Below are positions 16,762 to 26,648 of a stretch of 26,648 nucleotides of DNA, one piece after another (the first letter of the stretch is position 1; each line of letters begins with the position of its first letter). The notes beneath the pieces are model-generated. The model was not told the origin of the DNA. It was given only the letters and a program-made list of their open reading frames with translations, and made no database searches. Both the position numbers and the translations under genes were made by a program. The DNA is from a virus. Where the stretch lies: UHGV virus genome UHGV-0191547; one strand, given 5' to 3'.

Positions 16762-18552
16762 ATGATTTATACAACGGGAACAATTGCCATTAACGGCAAT
16801 ACTGTTACAGGCACGGGAACAAACTTTTCCGCGCCGCTTTCTCTCATCCGTGTAGGTTGCACGCTCATTGCCATTAGCAATCCTATCCAGATCTTTACCA
16901 TCACAGAAATTAAGAGCGGTACTGAACTGTCAGTGACGCCAGCGGCTAACCCTGCAATTGCTGCCGGGGCAAAATTCAGCATTCTGCTTTCTGACTCTAT
17001 CTCAGTTGATGGGCTTGCCCAGGATGTAGCGGAAACACTTCGTTTTTATCAGGAAAAAGAAGACGAAATATCCAGCGCAATAGATGGCAGCAATATTGGC
17101 TTAGGTCCAGAGCCGCGCGATTGCGTCGATATATCAGGCGATCCGTCTTCTTACGTTGGCTTTTTGCGCATAAAGGAAACGACTAAGGGTTTTCCTTCTG
17201 TAGCGGCTGGTGAATCATTTTTGAGTGGATTTATCTGTCAACGAGACACGACGCCTTCATATACAGGCGTCTTTGTCGGTTGGGCTACGCGATCACTTTA
17301 TACGTATACATGGGTCGCAACATCAGGTCCGAACTGGACACGACACGCAAGAAAAGATGAGGTGGATAGGCTTGTTCAAAGAACAGGAGAAACTCGCGTA
17401 CGCGCTCAAAACGCAAATAAATTCCTTACCGTCTATGATTCAGGATCGTGGGGTTATTATGACTCAGAGGCTAGTAAATGGCTACCGCTTCCAGTTCTTG
17501 CTGGAGGCACTGGTGCGGGAAACGCAGAAGAAGCAAGAAATAATTTAAATCTTGGTGAAAGCAACGCGGTTAAATTCAAAAACCTTACGTTAATAGGGGC
17601 GCTAGATGCAAATTTAGGCATGCTCGTAAAAACTGGAAGAGACTGGAATACTCAGCACACTGACAATATCCAAAAATTTATACCAATGGCAGGAAGCACA
17701 AACGGACCCGCCGGAGCAATGGTACTCGGTGGCTTCCATGTGCAATACAGCACAAATTACGCTGTGCAATTCGGGGGTCGAAATTCCGGTTTTTGGGGTA
17801 GAACAATTGAAAACGGAACAGTTCAGGAATGGCGTCAACTAGCTACGCTTAACACATCCGGTCAAAAATGGACTGCCGGTCAGCATTTTGTGACGACAAA
17901 AATTAACTCTTATGATTTCACAAGACGTTTAACTATCGATGTGATAGAAAACGCAAAAACAAACGCACGGTTACGCTTATGGGGATCAGAAACAAGGCAG
18001 TCCGTTTTAGAATATGGACTCTCGAACGCTGAAACCGATGAGTATAATACATATGGCTTTTATTGCCAGCTTAACCCAGACGGAGTAATTAGTTTTCAGG
18101 TTAACGGCGTAGTAAACTGCACAGCAGTTAATCAGACTTCAGATCGCGATCTGAAGGACAACATTCAGGTTATAGGTGATGCAACTGAAGCAATCCGTAA
18201 AATGAACGGGTACACCTACACCCTCAAGGAAAACGGCCTGCCTTACGCTGGCGTTATCGCTCAAGAGGTAATGGAGGCGCTGCCGGAGGCTGTGGGATCG
18301 TTTACTCATTACGGTAAAGCATTACAAGGCCCGACCACTGACGGCAACGAGCTACGCGAGGAAACGCGTTACCTCAATGTTGACTACGCTGCGGTGACTG
18401 GTTTACTTGTTCAGGTGGCACGCGAAACAGATAACCGCGTCACCGAACTGGAGGAAGAAAACGCCAGCTTACGAGCTAACATTGCCGTCATGGATGAGCG
18501 GATCACAAAACTTGAAGCGCTTGTCAGGCAGTTAACCGGAAGCGAAGAATAA
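16762..18552 (+). CDS. Tail fibre/tailspike protein with C-terminal intramolecular chaperone (peptidase S74-like) domain
   Basis: 596 aa; C-terminal TSDRDLKDNIQVIGDATEAIRKMNGYTY...YAGVIAQEV followed by a coiled coil is the S74 autoproteolytic chaperone signature. Confidence 0.75.
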   Translation: MIYTTGTIAINGNTVTGTGTNFSAPLSLIRVGCTLIAISNPIQIFTITEIKSGTELSVTPAANPAIAAGAKFSILLSDSISVDGLAQDVAETLRFYQEKEDEISSAIDGSNIGLGPEPRDCVDISGDPSSYVGFLRIKETTKGFPSVAAGESFLSGFICQRDTTPSYTGVFVGWATRSLYTYTWVATSGPNWTRHARKDEVDRLVQRTGETRVRAQNANKFLTVYDSGSWGYYDSEASKWLPLPVLAGGTGAGNAEEARNNLNLGESNAVKFKNLTLIGALDANLGMLVKTGRDWNTQHTDNIQKFIPMAGSTNGPAGAMVLGGFHVQYSTNYAVQFGGRNSGFWGRTIENGTVQEWRQLATLNTSGQKWTAGQHFVTTKINSYDFTRRLTIDVIENAKTNARLRLWGSETRQSVLEYGLSNAETDEYNTYGFYCQLNPDGVISFQVNGVVNCTAVNQTSDRDLKDNIQVIGDATEAIRKMNGYTYTLKENGLPYAGVIAQEVMEALPEAVGSFTHYGKALQGPTTDGNELREETRYLNVDYAAVTGLLVQVARETDNRVTELEEENASLRANIAVMDERITKLEALVRQLTGSEE

Positions 18553-18581
18553 GAGGTGATGTGCGAAGAACATCGCCGCGC

Positions 18582-18610
18582 GAAACGAGGCTAACGCCTC
18601 GTTTCTTTTT
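18582..18610 (+). terminator. Rho-independent terminator after the tail fibre gene
   Basis: GAAACGAGGC-taac-GCCTCGTTTC hairpin followed by TTTTT. Confidence 0.65.
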
Positions 18611-18864
18611 GTGTACCAAATAGTGACCAAAATGATAAATCAAAAACAAAAACAAAACATAACACATTGAATACAAATGAATTTTTCATTAAGTTATCCA
18701 TTCAAAAGATAAGTAGGTAACGCCATTTCTATCATTTCATATCGTGTCACATCGTCACCGTTTCACGTTGATTTCAAAAGAAATATTTATTCTATCGTGT
18801 CATATCGTTTTCTATCGTGATACTATCCATGCGTAAAATGTGTGTACCAAATAGTGACCAAATT
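18610..18864. promoter_or_regulatory. attP-like AT-rich region with a 22-bp perfect direct repeat and TATCGTG heptamer repeats
   Basis: TGTGTACCAAATAGTGACCAAA at 18610-18631 and 18841-18862; three or more TATCGTG copies in between; located immediately 5' of int. Confidence 0.4.
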
Positions 18865-20064
18865 ATGCTTACAGATACCAAATTACGAAACATCCACGGC
18901 AAGCCATATGACGGCCCGGAAGAAGTCCCGGACGCGGGCGGATTGTCTGCCAGGATAAGCCCGCGCGGAGTTATATCTTTCCAGTATCGCTACCGATTCA
19001 ACGGCAAGCCTCGACGGATGAAGATCGGCACATACGGAGAAATAACACTCAAAGAAGCGCGGGCGGCGGTGGCGGAGCATAAGGAAGTCTTAAACTCAGG
19101 ACGAGATCCATCGATCGTAAAAAGAATGAAATTGTCACGCGTTACGACACGGGCAACGATTGAGGATATTGTGAGGGAATACATGGAATCACCGCAGGCA
19201 AGAAACATGGTCAACTATAAGCAAGTCGAGGCGATGCTAAGTAAGCACATTGTCAGACCATGCGGTAGCTATATCGTCGATGATATGGACTCCATAATGT
19301 GGGAGGGGATTTTTAGAAAGGTAGCCAATGGTGGCGCGCCCGTTCAGGCCGGGATAGTCTTAAACAGGATGAAGGCGGTGATAAAATATGCCATGCGACG
19401 CCGCCGCGTGGAGCGTGACGACATATCATTACTACGCGTGAAAGACGTAGGCAAAAACCCGGCACAAAGGAAACGCGTCTTATCAATACAAGAGATTCAC
19501 CATCTAATCAGCATTATAGACAGTTCAAAAATGGCGCGGCTAAATCAGATATTGATGAAGCTGATTATATTCACCGGATGCAGAACAAGCGAACTAACAA
19601 ACGCAAGGCGCGAGCATTTCGATCTTGATAACTGTGTGTGGACCGTGCCGGGCGCATTGAGTAAGAACAGAAACGAGTTTAAACGCGGTTTATCCGCCGT
19701 TAGCGTTGATTTATTGCGTGAAGCTATGGATTTGCACGGCTTTAATTTTATCTTCGTTCCCGTGCTTTCTGGAAGGGATGAAGCGGTAGACAGGAGCGTG
19801 CCGAAAACAGCCGCAAGGGATTTGATGCTAAGGATGGGCGGCGAGCCGTGGTCGTGTCACGACTTGCGCCGCACTGTAAGGACAAACCTTTCAGCGCTTG
19901 GCATTGCGCCGCACGTAGCAGAAAAGGTTTTAGGTCATAAACTGGCGGGAATGATGGCTATATATGATCAGTATGATTACGTGAAGGAGCAAATAGAGGC
20001 GATGAATAAACTGGCTGATTACTACATGAAGCCCATTGATTTACAAAATGAAATAACGTCCTGA
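18865..20064 (+). CDS. int: Tyrosine recombinase / integrase, P4 type
   Basis: Start chosen at MLTDTKLRN; N-terminal arm-binding-like segment GGLSARISPRGVISFQYRYRFNGK; C-terminal HDLRRT...LGH...Y catalytic box. Confidence 0.9.
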   Translation: MLTDTKLRNIHGKPYDGPEEVPDAGGLSARISPRGVISFQYRYRFNGKPRRMKIGTYGEITLKEARAAVAEHKEVLNSGRDPSIVKRMKLSRVTTRATIEDIVREYMESPQARNMVNYKQVEAMLSKHIVRPCGSYIVDDMDSIMWEGIFRKVANGGAPVQAGIVLNRMKAVIKYAMRRRRVERDDISLLRVKDVGKNPAQRKRVLSIQEIHHLISIIDSSKMARLNQILMKLIIFTGCRTSELTNARREHFDLDNCVWTVPGALSKNRNEFKRGLSAVSVDLLREAMDLHGFNFIFVPVLSGRDEAVDRSVPKTAARDLMLRMGGEPWSCHDLRRTVRTNLSALGIAPHVAEKVLGHKLAGMMAIYDQYDYVKEQIEAMNKLADYYMKPIDLQNEITS

Positions 20065-20240
20065 TAACGGTAAAGAGATCCGCCGCGCTTTAACGCTGGC
20101 ATCCCCTTAACAGGTTCAGGGAAAGGAGTTCCCGCATCTTTCCATTTTTTAACGAGCTTAAAAAAGGCGGACTTGCTAAGCCCGCCTAACATTTTTTGCA
20201 CTTGCTCGCGATTAATAAGTATTGTCCCGATCTTATCCAT
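20022..20240 (-). CDS. alpA: AlpA-family excisionase / transcriptional regulator
   Basis: 72 aa with LINREQVQKMLGGLSKSAFFKLVKK helix-turn-helix typical of AlpA/Xis-like proteins; convergent with int, 3' ends overlap by 43 bp. Confidence 0.75.
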   Translation of the reverse strand: MDKIGTILINREQVQKMLGGLSKSAFFKLVKKWKDAGTPFPEPVKGMPALKRGGSLYRYQDVISFCKSMGFM

Positions 20241-20890
20241 TACTTATCACCATTGTAATTAGTAAAAGGAATATCGCCATTAATAATGGCTTTTGCCATA
20301 TTGCGATAATCACACGAATAATCGTTTTCAGTTGAAAAATTAATATCGTCGGCGGCATCACTTCCCATCACTTCACCCGCCAGAGCCTTAGCAATTTTCG
20401 CAATAGCCTTATCGATTGGGTTAACGTGCAAAAAATAATTGTAGATACCCCATCTGATCGTGGACTCGACAGATTCAGAGCCTTTCTCAACATAAACACC
20501 GTATTCACTGCCGATGAATTTAAACATGATTGTTCCGTAGTGATAACCATCAGAATAATAACAATCAAGCCACACGCCGCATGGCGGCTTTTCTCCTGGC
20601 TTCCATTCCGTTTTTTCTGGTTGCGTTTCGCAGTCGCAGCGTTCATCTTCGATTAATTCATCAATAACTTCACTTTCTTTATTCATACCGTCATCATCCT
20701 TTTCAGAGAAACGTATAAAGCGCCACGTATTAGCCATCAACGTATAAGATTCGCCGCCAACCTTAGATCCTGCGTAATACTCCGTACCAAAATCGTAATA
20801 GCTCGAAAACGTTGTCACTTCGAAAGGCGGAATATCAACGCGGAACCTGTGAAGCATTGTGCCTATTGCACGAGGTGTTTTATTTGCCAT
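20240..20890 (-). CDS. Hypothetical acidic protein (216 aa) with a CDCE...C cysteine cluster
   Basis: - strand ORF; its stop overlaps the alpA start; no motif recognised. Confidence 0.55.
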   Translation of the reverse strand: MANKTPRAIGTMLHRFRVDIPPFEVTTFSSYYDFGTEYYAGSKVGGESYTLMANTWRFIRFSEKDDDGMNKESEVIDELIEDERCDCETQPEKTEWKPGEKPPCGVWLDCYYSDGYHYGTIMFKFIGSEYGVYVEKGSESVESTIRWGIYNYFLHVNPIDKAIAKIAKALAGEVMGSDAADDINFSTENDYSCDYRNMAKAIINGDIPFTNYNGDK

Positions 20891-20891
20891 A

Positions 20892-21068
20892 TTACGCCAC
20901 CGTTACATTGTCAACTTTGATAAAGTATTCAGGGTGATTTTCTATTTCGTGCTTGAAGTGCGCGTGACACAATCGCCACTCCCGCGCCTGGTTGTGGAGG
21001 TAATAAACATATTCGCCATCAACCTTATACAAAATTCCTGTAGGTTTAGCCATGTAATAACGCACCAT
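20892..21068 (-). CDS. Small hypothetical protein (58 aa; start at MVRYYMAK)
   Basis: Internal start with a GGGGG RBS, two nt after the ninB stop; the longer track ORF 20892-21122 would overlap ninB. Confidence 0.4.
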   Translation of the reverse strand: MVRYYMAKPTGILYKVDGEYVYYLHNQAREWRLCHAHFKHEIENHPEYFIKVDNVTVA

Positions 21069-21070
21069 TA

Positions 21071-21499
21071 TTACCCCCAGCGTTTTATGAATTCCTCGTT
21101 TAATTTCGTATCGCCAGACCATTGAACATCATGTTCAGCGCCGAACGAGTAGATCAGCTCGATTAGTTCACTGAATTCTGATTTACTCATCCGGCTGGTT
21201 GATGTCCCCAATACAACAAAGCCGGATTTATCCAGGTTAGGGACGACGCCATATTTCTTAAGCCCGGCAGTAAATACCGCTTTCCAGTCTTCCGGCGACA
21301 GCTTCTTACCGTACCAATTAACCTGATCGCTAATGTCGGTTAACAGCGCCCAAAGCAACGCGTTTTGGCTTAGCGAGCGGGTTTTCTCCTGAATGGTGAT
21401 TATCAGCGGGCTTTTGCTATCAGGCTGGATCTCTCTTATCTGCCTGATAGCATTTTCTTTCACTGCGTCGTTGACTATCTCAAATCTAATTTGCCTCAT
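21071..21499 (-). CDS. ninB: NinB/Orf recombination protein
   Basis: 142 aa; blocks SLSQNALLWALLTDISDQVNWYGK, EDWKAVFTAGLK and GFVVLGTSTSRMSKSEFSELIELI align with recalled lambda NinB. Confidence 0.85.
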   Translation of the reverse strand: MRQIRFEIVNDAVKENAIRQIREIQPDSKSPLIITIQEKTRSLSQNALLWALLTDISDQVNWYGKKLSPEDWKAVFTAGLKKYGVVPNLDKSGFVVLGTSTSRMSKSEFSELIELIYSFGAEHDVQWSGDTKLNEEFIKRWG

Positions 21500-21693
21500 G
21501 ATACACCGTTACTATTTCGCCATATAGCCCGCGCATACATAATCTCCTGCAAAGAAATTAGCCGCGAGCTTGTCATGTATTTTTCCTTTAATCTTTTCAT
21601 ATCAACCGTGACAGGCTTATCAGGATCATCGCCGCGCATGTATTCCGCGATCGTGCTTAAATCCTCCACGGTCAATTCTAAATCCTTGTCCAT
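21496..21693 (-). CDS. Small hypothetical protein (65 aa)
   Basis: - strand ORF; start/stop overlap with neighbours, so translationally coupled. Confidence 0.45.
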   Translation of the reverse strand: MDKDLELTVEDLSTIAEYMRGDDPDKPVTVDMKRLKEKYMTSSRLISLQEIMYARAIWRNSNGVS

Positions 21694-21702
21694 AATTCCC
21701 CC

Positions 21703-21909
21703 TTACACAATCCGCATTGTGTTTCGCAATTCCCCACGCAGCGCCCGCAATGCATCGTGCATTGGCACAAAAACCCGGTTAAATTTTACGTGTTTATATT
21801 TCCGCATCAGTGGCGGTGTATACACCTTTGCGTCGTATACTTCCCACGGATAATAAACGCGCGTATCGTCGACAAACGTTTCAACTGAATAAAAGATTAC
21901 CCGTCTCAT
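21703..21909 (-). CDS. Small hypothetical protein (68 aa)
   Basis: - strand ORF with a 4-bp overlap with the upstream gene. Confidence 0.45.
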   Translation of the reverse strand: MRRVIFYSVETFVDDTRVYYPWEVYDAKVYTPPLMRKYKHVKFNRVFVPMHDALRALRGELRNTMRIV

Positions 21910-22499
21910 AATTCTAACCCCGTTTCACCGTTAAGTTTTTCGATCTCAAATACTGGTTTATCCGGTAACAGGCCGTTATTTTTCCGGTATTCATTCAGGC
22001 GGCTGTCAAAATCAAACGCGAGATCATTAGCGTGACCAAAGCGACCAGGTTTAAACAGTGAGTAAAAATTAAGGCCGTGTTTATTGGTATCTATGCAAAG
22101 CGTTTCATCCAGCACCATTAAACGCAGCGTGCGCGAAAGGTAATTCCACGGAATGCCAGTTTCCGCGCTAATATCTCTCATTCGCTTTCTAACGTTGTAG
22201 TCAGTAAATAACGCGGCTACACGCTCGCGTCGTTGTTCGTATAAATATTTAATTCGATAGCCCAGCAAGCGGCGGCGCGGGCCAAAATATGTATACACCC
22301 GCTCAACCAGATTAGTGTCGATCAGGTGTTTAACTGTTTCCGGCAAGCATCCGGCTTCGTCGTATTCCGCTGATAATCCTGTTTTCTGGCGTAGCTGGTG
22401 CATTGTTGCGATGCCATCAAGTTCAAGGATATTGATAATTTTTGCTTCAAGTTCAATGCTCATTGTTTTTCGCCTCGTTTTAAGCGCGAAAACAGCCAC
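21906..22499 (-). CDS. Hypothetical protein (197 aa), possible winged-helix N-terminus
   Basis: Follows the helicase gene; N-terminal IINILELDGIATMHQLRQKTGLS looks like a winged helix; the true start may be the internal MSIELEAK. Confidence 0.5.
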   Translation of the reverse strand: MAVFALKTRRKTMSIELEAKIINILELDGIATMHQLRQKTGLSAEYDEAGCLPETVKHLIDTNLVERVYTYFGPRRRLLGYRIKYLYEQRRERVAALFTDYNVRKRMRDISAETGIPWNYLSRTLRLMVLDETLCIDTNKHGLNFYSLFKPGRFGHANDLAFDFDSRLNEYRKNNGLLPDKPVFEIEKLNGETGLEL

Positions 22500-22542
22500 C
22501 AGAAAGCGGTCAACTTTCCGGTAAGCCGTTTGCTCGAGTTAA

Positions 22543-23964
22543 TTAAAAAGATGCGTTATTCTGGTTATTTCGTGGGGAGAATCGGCTTGTCGCCGGACGT
22601 TGTTGCATTGACTGAATGCAAGCGGACGCCGCGCGGGCCTGGTCGCATGGGATGATGTTGCCGTTATCGTCAAACCGCTGGTAAACAGTCCCCGTTTTCC
22701 CGTGACGGTTTTTTGAAACGATGATCTCCATATATTCGCGGGCAACCGATTGTTCGTTGTAGTAGCCGTCGCGGTAGACCATGATGATCCGGTCTGCGTC
22801 CTGTTCAAGATTACCGGAATCACGCAGATCAGAATTGTTCGGGCGCTTGTTCGGTCGTTCCTCAACGCGGCGGGATAATTGCGCCAGCGCCGCCACTGGC
22901 ACGCGCAACTCTTTCGCCATCATTTTCAATGACCACGACAATTGCCCTACGGCGAGATCATGACGTTCGGCCTTAGCCAGCTTCATTAACCCGATGTAGT
23001 CAATCATTACCATCCCCAGGTTAGGATGGTCCTGTTTCATCCGTTCGACGGTGGCGCGTATTTCCTCGACCGTTAACTGCGATGCGTCAACAATCCACAC
23101 ATCGAGATCGGCAAGGGCACTCATTCCCTGGGCGACGTGCGCCCAACCTTCGTCATCCAGTTTTACCGGATTACGTAGGCAATCCGTTGATAAGTTCCCA
23201 GCGCCAGCGATAGCACGTTCAGTCATCTGATCGAGCGACATTTCAAGCGTGAACAGCAAAACGCCGACCCGCTGACCTTCGCCGCCAGGGTATGGACGTT
23301 CAGCCGCCGCGCGGGCAATTGCCAACGCCAACGCCGATTTACCAGACCCCGGGCGTCCGGCGATAAGCACCAGATCAGTAGCGTTAATGCCGCCTAACAT
23401 TTCGTCGAGTGGGTCAATCCCTGTTTTGATGTTGTCAGAGTTCACGCCACACTCCATGCGTTTACTTAGCACTTCCGTGTATTCCTGGACCGCATCGCGC
23501 AACAGCACCGGGATAATTTGATCTTTTGTTACCTTTAATTTTGAATACCGGGAATCAAAATCTTTCATCGTCTCTTTGACGACTTCAAGCGTCCCTGTTT
23601 CCAGCTTGTAGCGAATGTCTTCCATTAGTTCCAGCATTTGCCGCCGCTGGTGTTCTTCCTGTAGTAGTTGAGCATATCCTTTTAGGTTGGCAGCAGAAGG
23701 ACACGATCGCGCCGTTTGCATCAGCGGTACAAAATTTTCGTTGCCAATCTCATCACCAACCAGCAAGGCGTCGATAAGATTTCTGTTTCTGGCTTGCGCC
23801 CGGATAATTTCAAAAGCCCGCTTATATAGCGGAATAGTGAACACTTCAGGATCAAGCGTAGCGAGAACATCCTGCGCGTTAGGAGTAAGCCCACCTAACA
23901 GCAGGCCACCGATAACCGCCGATTCTCTTTCTTGCCGCAATGAGTTTACTTGTTCGGTTATCAT
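22543..23964 (-). CDS. DnaB-family replicative DNA helicase
   Basis: 473 aa; DnaB-like N-terminal domain, Walker A GRPGSGKS, RecA-like core. Confidence 0.85.
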   Translation of the reverse strand: MITEQVNSLRQERESAVIGGLLLGGLTPNAQDVLATLDPEVFTIPLYKRAFEIIRAQARNRNLIDALLVGDEIGNENFVPLMQTARSCPSAANLKGYAQLLQEEHQRRQMLELMEDIRYKLETGTLEVVKETMKDFDSRYSKLKVTKDQIIPVLLRDAVQEYTEVLSKRMECGVNSDNIKTGIDPLDEMLGGINATDLVLIAGRPGSGKSALALAIARAAAERPYPGGEGQRVGVLLFTLEMSLDQMTERAIAGAGNLSTDCLRNPVKLDDEGWAHVAQGMSALADLDVWIVDASQLTVEEIRATVERMKQDHPNLGMVMIDYIGLMKLAKAERHDLAVGQLSWSLKMMAKELRVPVAALAQLSRRVEERPNKRPNNSDLRDSGNLEQDADRIIMVYRDGYYNEQSVAREYMEIIVSKNRHGKTGTVYQRFDDNGNIIPCDQARAASACIQSMQQRPATSRFSPRNNQNNASF

Positions 23965-23982
23965 TATGGCATCGCCTCCGGT

Positions 23983-25101
23983 TTACATAATGGAATATTC
24001 AGGGTAATAAACAAAGCGCCCAATTTCCCCATGATCCGGGCTGTAAATAATCACCGCTGCCAGACGCCGCGACCGCCAACCGCCATTCGTTGAATAAGCG
24101 TCTTTACCCGCTAATGTGCCGTGATACTCAACAACGCCTAACGATGATTCAATCAGCCGTTGATGATGCCAGTGCCCGCAATGAGCGTAAACCGCCGCAG
24201 ACTTGCCGAAATCCTCACGCCAGTCAGCTACGCAAGCAGACAATAAATTTTCCGGCTTTTTGATAGTGTGCCCGTGGTGGTAAGCAAGGAATGTTTTGCC
24301 GTACTGTGTGTGGTGGACGATAGCAGGGGACACATCAACCGTCACGCGCGGTTCATCTTCGTAAAAAGCCGCCAGCGCCGCGCGTAGCCAAATCATGCCT
24401 GACTGATCGTGATTGCCTGATAACACCTTGATTTCAACATCCTTATGATTTAACAACATCTTTCCTACCGCCCGCCGGACAGACCGGATCGCTACATAAA
24501 CAAGTTTTGCGTAGCGACTATCCTGATCAAGAATGTGCCCGCTTGTTGGTGTAACCGGAACCATTCCGTCAGAATGAAGCAGGTCGCCACCGAGAAGCAA
24601 AACAGCCTTTTCAGACATTGGAGCAGCGCCTACAGCGTAGTCGAAGAAGTCATTTAGCACGCGTTCAGCGATCCCGGTGTCGTAGCTCTCACCGCATTCA
24701 GCTTTATGAGCAAGCGCCCCGATATGCAGATCAAACACCGGATAAAGGGCCAGGCTTTTTTGAAAATCAATTTCAGGCACTGGCACGGCCTCCGCGCGTG
24801 GTATCTCTTCCGTGAAAGCATCGCAAGCCGCTTCCATTAGCATTTCCATTTCATCGCGATCACGGGCTGTTTTAATCCAGCGCATGACTGTATTCCCATC
24901 TTTATCAACAAGAACAGATTCACCAGTAACGCCAAAACCAGGGGCGCGTCGCGTTGATAATAAACCGCGTTTCGCCAGTTTTGCGCCTAGCCGCTCGACG
25001 TTGCGTTTTGACATGCCATATTTTTCAGCAATCTGCTTGTACGTTAAACCGTTGTTATATTCAGCGATCAATTGCTCATCGCTGATTTTTCTTTGCGACA
25101 T
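23983..25101 (-). CDS. Fusion protein: N-terminal helix-turn-helix plus calcineurin-like metallophosphoesterase
   Basis: 372 aa; HTH LTYKQIAEKYGMSKRNVERLGAKL; phosphoesterase motifs DLH, GGDLLH, GNHD, HHGH, GHWHH in canonical order. Confidence 0.6.
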   Translation of the reverse strand: MSQRKISDEQLIAEYNNGLTYKQIAEKYGMSKRNVERLGAKLAKRGLLSTRRAPGFGVTGESVLVDKDGNTVMRWIKTARDRDEMEMLMEAACDAFTEEIPRAEAVPVPEIDFQKSLALYPVFDLHIGALAHKAECGESYDTGIAERVLNDFFDYAVGAAPMSEKAVLLLGGDLLHSDGMVPVTPTSGHILDQDSRYAKLVYVAIRSVRRAVGKMLLNHKDVEIKVLSGNHDQSGMIWLRAALAAFYEDEPRVTVDVSPAIVHHTQYGKTFLAYHHGHTIKKPENLLSACVADWREDFGKSAAVYAHCGHWHHQRLIESSLGVVEYHGTLAGKDAYSTNGGWRSRRLAAVIIYSPDHGEIGRFVYYPEYSIM

Positions 25102-25140
25102 AATGTTATTTCCTCCGGTTTACATATTGTATATTCATTG

Positions 25141-26058
25141 TCAGCAAACAATCTCTTTATATGCTTCTTCTACCATGTCGAATACTTCAGACCTGTAATA
25201 AAAAAATTCTTCGCTACCGCTAAATTTTGCAGGAAACTTGATTTTATAATTGCTGAAAGCCTTATGCATTGTGCTTTCTAATTTATACATATTTCCGGTT
25301 GGCCCTTCTAACGTTTTCACGATATGCAAATCAGGAATTCTAATACCTGCTTTATGTGCGCTTTTTAATATATCATTTCTTCGCTTATTCTCCTTAGTGC
25401 TTACACCGATTTTCATTTGTGTAGGTACTTCCAGATCGTCAACCATGATGTAAAGTTTGCCGCGCTCATGTGATAAGAAACCAATTTTTGCACATTTAGG
25501 ACAACCTTTACCCTGTTTTAGGTTGTGAGGTCTAACAGACCATTCATGATCACAAACCTTGCAGCGGCATAATACATTCTTAAAATTACTAGTGATCTCA
25601 CCCAATACTTCAACATCAGGGTTAACCTTTGAGATAGCTAAAACTTGATCTTCATGTGTTAACTTCGTATTTCCAGCGCATTTCGGACAACTGCGCCCGC
25701 GCTTAAGGTGGGCAGGTATAGCAAACCATTCATGATCACAAACCTTGCAGCGGCATAACACATTCTTAATGCTATTAGTGATCTCACCCAATACTTCAAC
25801 ATCAGGGTTAACCTTTGAGATAGCCGTGACTTGTTCTTTGTGTGATAATGTTCTGCTTTGCGCTCGTTTTAGTTTCGCACATTTCGGGCAGCCGCAACCG
25901 TGCTTAAGATTGTTAGGTTTAGCCGACCATTCATGATCACAAACCTTGCAGCGGCATAATACTTTTGTGTCTGTGTTTATTATTTCTCCCAGCACTTCAA
26001 CATCAGGATTAATTTTCGCAATAGCCGCAATTTGTTCTTCGTGTGTTAACTTACGCAT
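25141..26058 (-). CDS. Triple zinc-ribbon repeat protein with C-terminal T5orf172-like domain
   Basis: 305 aa; three copies of VLCRCKVCDHEW...G.GCPKCA about 62 aa apart, then LYIMVDD...KIGVST...FSGSEEFFY resembling the T5orf172 fold. Confidence 0.65.
   Translation of the reverse strand: MRKLTHEEQIAAIAKINPDVEVLGEIINTDTKVLCRCKVCDHEWSAKPNNLKHGCGCPKCAKLKRAQSRTLSHKEQVTAISKVNPDVEVLGEITNSIKNVLCRCKVCDHEWFAIPAHLKRGRSCPKCAGNTKLTHEDQVLAISKVNPDVEVLGEITSNFKNVLCRCKVCDHEWSVRPHNLKQGKGCPKCAKIGFLSHERGKLYIMVDDLEVPTQMKIGVSTKENKRRNDILKSAHKAGIRIPDLHIVKTLEGPTGNMYKLESTMHKAFSNYKIKFPAKFSGSEEFFYYRSEVFDMVEEAYKEIVC
25539..26025 (-). repeat. Three tandem intragenic repeats of 186-201 bp encoding the zinc-ribbon modules
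   Basis: Units start at about 25539, 25725 and 25926; the first two are about 95 percent identical over the first 100 nt. Confidence 0.8.
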
Positions 26059-26198
26059 CGATCCAACTCCTTAAAACGCCTCAGACGCGCTACAACGCAA
26101 AAATCCACCGCGACACCCATTTGCACAGGTTGCAGTGTCTTATTGCGCCAGAGGCGCTATCATGTGGCTAATTTTTGATTTACAGACTGGTAGGTAGG

Positions 26199-26300
26199 TT
26201 ATGGATTGATAAGAAGGAACAAACCGCCGAACAAAGCGACGTTAACAGCGATTGCAGCAGCGATGGCAAAGGCCAGGGCGAAAACGTGTTTACCGTCCAT
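26199..26300 (-). CDS. Possible small hydrophobic peptide (33 aa, MDGKHVFALAFAIAAAIAVNVALFGGLFLLINP)
   Basis: Hand-translated - strand ORF with AGAGAGGA RBS; almost entirely one predicted transmembrane helix. Confidence 0.2.
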   Translation of the reverse strand: MDGKHVFALAFAIAAAIAVNVALFGGLFLLINP

Positions 26301-26433
26301 TTTTAGATCCTCTCTAAAACGCTCTATAACGAGCTAAACCGCTAAAGATATGCAATCGTAGCACAATGCGTGTTTTAGCTCGCTGGTGAGCTTGTTTTGC
26401 GGGTAATTTTGTGTTTTTGCGGATCGTGGTTGG

Positions 26434-26646
26434 TCAAAGAGCGCCACATCGTGTATCACGTAGCGTTTTTGGTTTAAGCAGGAAATCAAGTGTCGCTGTG
26501 AAGCCATTGCCGAAGTAAAAATCTGAAGCCGTGTTTTTGAACGTTTCAAAGTAGGCGACAAAGCCGTTGATGCTTTTGTCTTTCAGGTAGTCAGTGAACG
26601 CATAAATCTTGCGTTCAAGATCCCGATCCAGTTCGGCAGGTGGCAA
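26434..26646 (-). CDS. Partial CDS (3' end only; N-terminus beyond the window)
   Basis: ORF open to the window edge; the competing frame 26334-26561 makes this uncertain. Confidence 0.25.
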   Translation of the reverse strand: MPPAELDRDLERKIYAFTDYLKDKSINGFVAYFETFKNTASDFYFGNGFTATLDFLLKPKTLRDTRCGAL

Positions 26647-26648
26647 CA

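Follow-up and report, generated by a model that had tools for sequence, protein, structure and literature searches.

A helix-turn-helix metallophosphoesterase gene between the replication initiator and DnaB-type helicase genes of an mEpimmI-type phage

The 26,648-nucleotide (nt) stretch of the virus genome UHGV-0191547 analysed here, referred to as the window, carries a gene whose product, named HTH-MPE, combines an N-terminal helix-turn-helix (HTH) with a metallophosphoesterase (MPE) domain, and which lies directly upstream of the gene for a DnaB-like helicase. A first-pass annotation, based on the sequence alone, had located this gene where a replication initiator is expected, and had considered it to be a non-canonical initiator, a nuclease or an accessory enzyme encoded within the replication operon. 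HTH-MPE is not the replication initiator, which is encoded one to two genes upstream and truncated where the window ends; extra genes have been inserted in an otherwise conventional P22-type initiator-helicase module. The third of those options is therefore retained, the second is compatible with the data, and the first is abandoned in view of the separate initiator. On balance, HTH-MPE is probably a DNA-targeted two-metal phosphodiesterase, for which we infer a nucleic-acid substrate, encoded by an accessory gene inserted in the P22-type module. The gene is ordinary in kind, being a member of a known, widely annotated and uncharacterised phage family, phrog_704.

The Replication Initiator and the Organisation of the Replication Module

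The position described for the gene was correct, as it is a real open reading frame (ORF) that lies between the initiator and helicase genes of the early right operon, 18 nt from the latter and on the same strand. The initiator gene is represented in the window by its 3' end, the translation of positions 26434..26646 on the minus strand being almost identical to the last 70 codons of mEp013_15, annotated as 'replication protein O'. The complete gene is found on the metagenomic contig L008, which is 100% identical to window positions 17983-26648, encodes exactly the window HTH-MPE protein, and runs 4453 nt past the window end. This gene (L008 3616-4668) encodes a protein of 350 amino acids (aa) with a Lin1244_N domain (6.9e-11) and matches to phrog_345, 'replication initiation O-like' (1.3e-18), and phrog_428, 'replication initiation protein' (1.3e-20). 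Four 11-bp iterons (GGGTCATGA plus two bases) lie inside it at L008 4002-4047, directly followed by an A/T-rich stretch, iterons and stretch together occupying L008 4002-4086. Lambdoid phages classically carry their origin in this way, within the initiator gene.

In mEp013, an HTH-MPE homolog (mEp013_11, 97% identity) also sits between the annotated 'replication protein O' and the helicase. The initiator of this phage has another N-terminal DNA-binding domain (HTH_36, 4.9e-15) and other iterons inside its gene (four copies of about 23 bp). Thus, the N-terminal domain and the iterons change together between mEp013 and L008, as would be predicted of an initiator-origin pair. In MagusPhagus the gene order is initiator, MPE and DnaB, without the endonuclease-like gene that intervenes between the first two in the window.

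Iterons or an origin had been envisaged inside or next to the HTH-MPE gene. A repeat search in 23983-25140 and around it revealed no iterons or repeat array in or beside this gene, the largest repeat family there consisting of the three zinc-finger modules of the neighbouring endonuclease-like gene; the iterons lie instead in the upstream initiator gene. No AT-rich non-coding element lies beside the HTH-MPE gene, and the sole low-GC stretch is a coding region of that same endonuclease-like gene. As regards homology to a characterised initiator family, also contemplated in the first-pass annotation, comparison of HTH-MPE with the initiator families of Pfam, PHROGs and NCBIfam gave generic sub-threshold HTH matches only. 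Thus, HTH-MPE resembles lambda O and P22 gp18 in its N-terminal HTH and in its position upstream of the helicase gene, whereas it differs from them in the lack of initiator homology and iterons and in the possession of a catalytic MPE domain.

The comparison with P22 was well founded with respect to gene order, as the O-like gene 18 of P22-like phages does precede, and in fact abuts, the gene 12 helicase. The closest relatives of the window helicase outside the mEpimmI group of phages are P22-like gene 12 proteins (56% identity), and P22-type modules need an initiator and a helicase only. Taking into account that the initiator is simply cut by the window edge and forms with the helicase a conventional P22-type pair, no unusual initiation mechanism is needed, and the result for the window is mainly corrective.

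Two further observations concern the surroundings of the initiator gene. Directly upstream of the full-length Lin1244_N initiator, outside the window and about 1 kb past its end, an 84-aa ORF (L008 3358-3612) has matches to several initiator families (phrog_4617, 8e-19) that are restricted to their N-terminal HTH_36 part. In mEp013 this HTH_36 domain is fused to the same C-terminal domain, so that the ORF looks like what is left of an initiator DNA-binding domain that was displaced. Just 3' of the initiator stop codon there is an imperfect inverted repeat (window 26316-26396), with 23-nt arms that are 74% complementary and a 35-nt spacer, which is also kept in mEp013 (L001 8096-8166).

Domain Architecture and Catalytic Residues of HTH-MPE

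The N-terminal HTH proposed from the sequence has been corroborated in several ways. Against Pfam, the window protein matches HTH_23, HTH_36 and Sigma70_r4_2, all below threshold (E around 1e-3 with the whole protein); with residues 1-114 alone, the same HTH models give E values of 7e-5 to 3e-4. In relatives the matches are clear, reaching 1.5e-9 for Sigma70_r4_2, 2.4e-8 for GerE and 2.6e-7 for HTH_8. The AlphaFold2 (AF2) model begins with three helices (residues 8-16, 21-28 and 32-44) with predicted local distance difference test (pLDDT) values of 80-86, followed by a beta-hairpin, which would constitute the wing, and a linker helix. This wing and linker region contains the family motif G-F-x-V-x-G-x-S...G...W-x-K-T, with conserved residues G55, F56, V58, S62, G69, W75, K77, T78 and D81, and both HTH and wing are kept across the whole phrog_704 family. 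An NCBIfam search with the window protein gave weak HTH matches only, and in PDB sequence searches, carried out with this protein and with two family profiles, only HTH matches reached significance.

In the C-terminal part, direct reading gives the motifs F-D124-L-H126-I-G, G-G172-D173-L-L-H176, S-G229-N230-H231-D232, H275-H276-G-H278 and G309-H310-W-H312, so that motifs I-VI of the superfamily (DxH, GD, GNH[DE], H, GH and GHxH) are all present. Fifty family members, only 30-59% identical to the window protein, were aligned. Nine residues do not vary among them (D124, H126, G172, D173, N230, H231, H276, G309 and H312), and three more, H310, D232 and G229, are conserved in at least 90%. This conservation of the motifs across 50 divergent homologs goes far beyond chance, and gives strong sequence-based evidence that HTH-MPE would be an active enzyme under selection. 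The complete phosphoesterase motif set that had been read in this gene is thus upheld, its residues aligning with the catalytic residues of the phosphoesterase fold. The beta-alpha-beta-alpha-beta sandwich of the calcineurin-like superfamily is present as well, in a compact core of the binuclear type that keeps every metal-binding and catalytic residue.

Sequence profiles connect this catalytic part with known families only at a distance. For the window protein, no Pfam match was obtained in this region even at E<=10, and among the 50 relatives Metallophos is matched by 11 (best 5.8e-5) and Metallophos_2 by 10. In the PDB search, the Mre11/SbcD of T. maritima (E=0.23-0.43) and a nuclease MPE of P. 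putida (E=1.9) did not reach significance. Alignment with hhalign of the family profile to the single sequence of E. coli SbcD had a probability of 2.7%, with motif III alone aligned, and the same profile gave no match to the single sequence of lambda NinI.

The flavour of the motifs is more informative. DLHIG, GGDLLH, GNHD and GHWH correspond to the Mre11/SbcD, LpxH and CpdA classes, and the signatures of PPP enzymes such as lambda NinI are GDxHG, GDxVDRG and GNHE. Fold and motifs together place HTH-MPE with the phosphodiesterase/nuclease MPEs (MJ0936, SbcD/Mre11, LpxH), and not with the lambda NinI-type protein phosphatases. The choice between phosphatase and nuclease that had been raised for this gene is in this way settled halfway: the answer goes against a PPP protein phosphatase, whereas a nuclease, another phosphodiesterase and a pyrophosphatase all agree with the data.

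The phrog_704 Family and Its Genomic Contexts

The window protein matches phrog_704 with E=2.1e-141, its residues 4-368 aligning on profile positions 2-387 of 390, and therefore shares with this family both the HTH and MPE architecture and the length. Phage T1 gp16 is a member and, by name, the prototype; the names in use for the family ('DNA repair exonuclease', 'putative phosphoesterase') are annotation only. In a tblastn search, 2038 phage records matched, of which 1956 cover 80% or more of the protein and so are near full length, including T1-like Drexlerviridae, Jersey-like phages, Dhillonvirus, the SP6-like Era103, and Vibrio and Campylobacter phages. Among the matches listed, identity to the window protein is 57-67% for Drexlerviridae and 39-45% for Jersey-like phages, Dhillonvirus and Era103. 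An exhaustive search (E<=0.001) gave 4433 clusters at 50% identity. Thus, phrog_704 is among the commoner phage enzymes, with its catalytic residues conserved throughout, and yet its name is only inferred.

The genomic contexts of the family were surveyed in 355 loci, in which ORFs were called and neighbours clustered; the 288 unique family proteins that they encode form 42 lineages at 70% identity. As the sampling was partly seeded from two lineages linked to polynucleotide kinase-phosphatase (Pnk), the fractions obtained are rough. A DnaB-type helicase adjoins the family gene in a single lineage, that of the mEpimmI phages. Within three genes, lysis genes appear in 14 of the 42 lineages, HNH homing endonucleases in 11, a stand-alone Pnk-type HAD 3'-phosphatase in seven, and relatives of the P-loop kinase T1 p62 in five. 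Other members lie in islands among tail genes, and most of them belong to virulent phages with other replication systems. Elsewhere, the family is found near lysis genes, next to a split Pnk or in tail-gene islands, whereas the window gene stands between initiator and DnaB in a temperate phage.

MPE, HAD phosphatase and P-loop kinase genes follow one another in this order in the Webervirus FZ10, in Era103, in Yersinia phage YenM_27 and in Pantoea phage AAS23. For the HAD protein, matches were obtained with the phosphatase domain of T4 Pnk, with Pnkp1 and, in Pfam, with HAD_PNKP. In Era103 the MPE gene is located among those for an exonuclease, endonuclease VII, the HAD phosphatase, the kinase and a DNA ligase. 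In the Klebsiella phage FZ10, the HAD ORF (L122 4035-4652; record 42200-42817), a Pnk-type 3'-phosphatase with the DxDGT motif, has been missed by the public annotation; it sits between the genes annotated as 'DNA repair exonuclease' and 'dNMP kinase'.

Homing-type HNH genes flank phrog_704 genes in T1, Ent3 and a Vibrio phage, and of two prophage loci, L010 and L011, that are otherwise identical, one has an HNH gene beside the family gene. The AAS23 (Sauletekiovirus) homolog, gp38, has been found in purified virions by liquid chromatography-tandem mass spectrometry (PMC8004638). This location would be unexpected for an enzyme of DNA metabolism; gp38 could be a protein carried in the virion or ejected from it, or a contaminant.

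Proposed Function

In the function that we favour, the HTH would tether the enzyme to DNA, and a two-metal centre formed by D124/H126/D173/N230/H276/H310/H312, with H231 as the putative stabiliser of the transition state, would hydrolyse phosphodiester bonds or terminal phosphates of nucleic acids. This activity might be that of an Mre11/SbcD-style nuclease, or a 3'-end processing, and may serve phage DNA replication, recombination, repair or nucleotide salvage. The gene would have been inserted between the O-like initiator and the DnaB-type helicase, in the window together with a homing-endonuclease gene. The confidence given to this proposal includes a small share for a role in end healing together with a split Pnk, which is discussed below as a special case.

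Several results weigh against this proposal. The AF2 model has an overall pLDDT of 75.9, a moderate confidence, and the conserved loop 176-196 that is specific to the family is modelled poorly (pLDDT 37-60). The capping domain that in Mre11/SbcD follows the MPE core at its C-terminal side is absent from HTH-MPE, which has instead an N-terminal HTH, and no Rad50/SbcC-type ATPase partner was found in the window neighbourhood or the surveyed loci, nor is one annotated in the whole MagusPhagus genome. Without capping domain and partner, and with sequence profiles that barely connect the two, HTH-MPE is not a member of the Mre11/SbcD family proper. Lysis genes, which are not in themselves a pointer to DNA metabolism, are the commonest neighbours of the family (14 of the 42 lineages), and neither the HAD phosphatase nor the P-loop kinase is encoded in the window, in L008, in the whole MagusPhagus genome or in the 15.4-kb mEp013 stretch L001. 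Moreover, a literature search for biochemical or genetic work on any family member returned mentions in genome annotations only. The Metis preprint deals with a bacterial MPE that is unrelated.

As an alternative, HTH-MPE might be a phosphodiesterase or pyrophosphatase for small molecules (cyclic or linear signalling nucleotides, NAD+, nucleotide-sugar or LpxH-like lipid precursors), acting in counter-defence or host takeover, with the HTH devoted to regulation or localisation. We consider this less likely than the favoured function, while giving it more weight than the other alternatives. The structural matches to LpxH and MJ0936 and the proximity of lysis genes speak for it. MJ0936, YfcE and LpxH, whose substrates are small molecules or lipid precursors, have no DNA-binding domain, are only 10-16% identical to HTH-MPE, and contain no identified counterpart of the family loop H176-R196. 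Against this alternative, both HTH and wing are conserved family-wide, a PADLOC scan gave no defence-system match, and the informative partners of the family are enzymes of nucleic acids (Pnk-type phosphatase, kinase, ligase, exonuclease, endonuclease VII, helicase, VRR-NUC and Dam). In addition, the proximity to lysis genes is explicable if the gene lies at the end of an early operon.

A more specific role, compatible with the DNA-targeted phosphodiesterase, is that of a 3'-end-healing enzyme (2',3'-cyclic phosphodiesterase or 3'-phosphatase) that would join the split Pnk in repairing DNA with nicks or tRNA that has been cut, and so counter defence by anticodon nucleases or nicking systems. 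The bacterial Pnkp of Clostridium thermocellum offers a precedent, its MPE module being used for end healing. The three-gene order, seen in Webervirus, Sauletekiovirus AAS23, Era103-like podoviruses and YenM_27, agrees with this role, as do the relationship of the HAD protein to T4 Pnk and Pnkp1 and the position of the Era103 block beside the DNA ligase gene, this block being absent from SP6 according to the gene notes of the record. However, the arrangement exists in only five to seven of the 42 lineages, in a sampling seeded with two of them, and neither partner occurs in the mEpimmI phages. Furthermore, the kinase is labelled as a dNMP kinase in PHROGs (phrog_139), which fits nucleotide salvage equally, and in T4 the HAD domain alone suffices for 3' healing. 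Thus, we regard end healing as rather doubtful for HTH-MPE. Similarly tentative is its extension to the family, according to which phrog_704 would be a widespread and so far unrecognised phage enzyme for nucleic-acid end processing, which in many virulent phages would form with the split Pnk (HAD 3'-phosphatase and P-loop kinase) a three-gene module that repairs or recycles damaged DNA or RNA, for example in counter-defence against host nucleases, and which in the temperate mEpimmI phages would have been recruited to the replication operon to process replication or recombination intermediates. In any case, the pairing with a split Pnk and the frequent homing-endonuclease neighbours make phrog_704 a reasonable target for biochemical characterisation.

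A role like that of lambda NinI, with HTH-MPE removing phosphate from Ser/Thr (or Tyr) residues of host or phage proteins, is very improbable. The two proteins belong to the same superfamily and are encoded by non-structural genes of early operons, and one lambdoid prophage homolog lies just before the Q antiterminator gene, in the place of lambda ninI, with an HNH gene between them in one copy only. Nevertheless, the direct reading of the motifs and their comparison with the textbook signatures show that their flavours are not those of PPPs; GDxHG, GDxVDRG and GNHE are absent, the structural similarity to PPPs is much lower, and the HTH is an extra element, so this reading was rejected.

Even less credible, and equally rejected, is a non-canonical initiator or helicase-loading factor whose HTH would bind the origin while the protein recruits the DnaB-type helicase: the location immediately 5' of DnaB, the 13-nt translation-initiation sequence common to both genes, the HTH with its weak match to HTH_36, a domain also present in initiators, and the constancy of this position in all seven mEpimmI-type records are outweighed by the bona fide O-like initiators, with internal iterons, that lie upstream in the same phage and in mEp013, by the lack of iterons and initiator-family matches in HTH-MPE, by the direct contact of gene 18 with gene 12 in modules that require nothing else, by an adjacency to DnaB confined to one lineage of a family living mostly in virulent phages that replicate by other means, and by strictly conserved catalytic residues, which argue for an enzyme.

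Phage Group, Neighbouring Genes and Coordinates

The closest phage records to the window protein are those of the mEpimmI group (mEp013, mEp021, mEp010 and others) and MagusPhagus. The phage belongs to this group and, as a whole, is not P22-like; all seven mEpimmI-type records of the phage collection carry HTH-MPE in the same position. The mEpimmI group comprises Nus-dependent, non-lambdoid temperate coliphages with siphovirus morphology (PMC11893012).

The features located in the window are collected in Table 1. The HTH-MPE ORF starts with ATG at 25101 and ends with TAA at 23985-23983, and GGAGG lies about 10 nt 5' of the start codon. The helicase gene matches DnaB_C (E=1.1e-75) and the DnaB N-terminal domain (E=9.6e-12) in Pfam, and phrog_19 in PHROGs. 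Both genes have the 13-nt sequence TGTAAACCGGAGG as their ribosome-binding region. When up to two mismatches are allowed, this sequence has three matches in the window against 0.42 expected, a number reached in none of 100 shuffles; it could be a module-boundary sequence serving the recombinational insertion of the HTH-MPE gene.

Table 1. Position of HTH-MPE, its domains and catalytic codons, and the surrounding features in the window
Feature	Coordinates	Strand	Description or basis
HTH-MPE gene	23983..25101	-	372-aa winged-HTH and metallophosphoesterase protein; phrog_704 / phage T1 gp16 family; ORF call
Tri-helical HTH, residues 8-44	24970..25080	-	Sub-threshold Pfam matches, matches of relatives, AF2 helices
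Wing (beta-hairpin 60-77) and linker helix 82-99, residues 55-99	24805..24939	-	AF2 secondary structure and conservation
Metallophosphoesterase core, residues 114-372	23986..24762	-	
Catalytic codons D124, H126, D173, N230	24730-24732; 24724-24726; 24583-24585; 24412-24414	-	
Catalytic codons H231, H276, H310, H312	24409-24411; 24274-24276; 24172-24174; 24166-24168	-	
DnaB-type replicative helicase gene	22543..23964	-	P22 gene 12-like, 473 aa; directly downstream of HTH-MPE gene
TGTAAACCGGAGG, first copy	25112..25124	-	13 nt; translation-initiation region 5' of HTH-MPE start; exact copy
TGTAAACCGGAGG, second copy	23975..23987	-	13 nt; 5' of DnaB start, overlapping HTH-MPE stop codon; exact copy
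Terminator-like hairpin	22496..22524	-	Just 3' of helicase gene; consensus scan
Homing-endonuclease-like gene	25141..26058	-	Between initiator and HTH-MPE genes; three DUF4379 zinc-finger domains and T5orf172
3' end of replication initiator gene	26434..26648	-	Last 70 codons and stop, cut by window edge; match to mEp013_15 C-terminus

The HTH-MPE gene is probably co-transcribed as a delayed-early gene, for which the promoter and terminator scans provide weak support. A consensus scan, in which the number of sites was no more than chance, showed no minus-strand promoter-like site between the initiator fragment and the helicase gene, and a terminator-like hairpin after the helicase gene. This hairpin separates the helicase gene from a 197-aa gene (21906-22499, minus strand), the product of which has weak winged-HTH or MarR-like matches to phrog_1687 (2e-7) and to phrog_142, 'Ren-like exclusion protein' (3.5e-5).

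The homing-endonuclease-like gene that accompanies HTH-MPE matches DUF4379 (2.7e-18), CapR (2.3e-12) and T5orf172 (3.2e-6) in Pfam, and the endonuclease family phrog_681 (1.9e-56). It contains three tandem repeats of 173-186 nt, each corresponding to one DUF4379/CapR treble-clef module, which are followed by the T5orf172 (GIY-YIG-like) domain, and its GC content falls to 0.34-0.37 in the 3' part. The gene is polymorphic among these phages, being absent in MagusPhagus and reduced in mEp013 to a version of 179 aa with a single repeat.

Finally, two plus-strand genes of the window have counterparts on L008. The ORF at 18817-20064 is the positional counterpart of the tyrosine integrase gene called on L008, and that at 16762-18552 corresponds to its Peptidase_S74 tail-fibre gene. 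The first of them separates the second from the end of the short early-right operon (NinB region), an unusual layout that is the one of the mEpimmI group.

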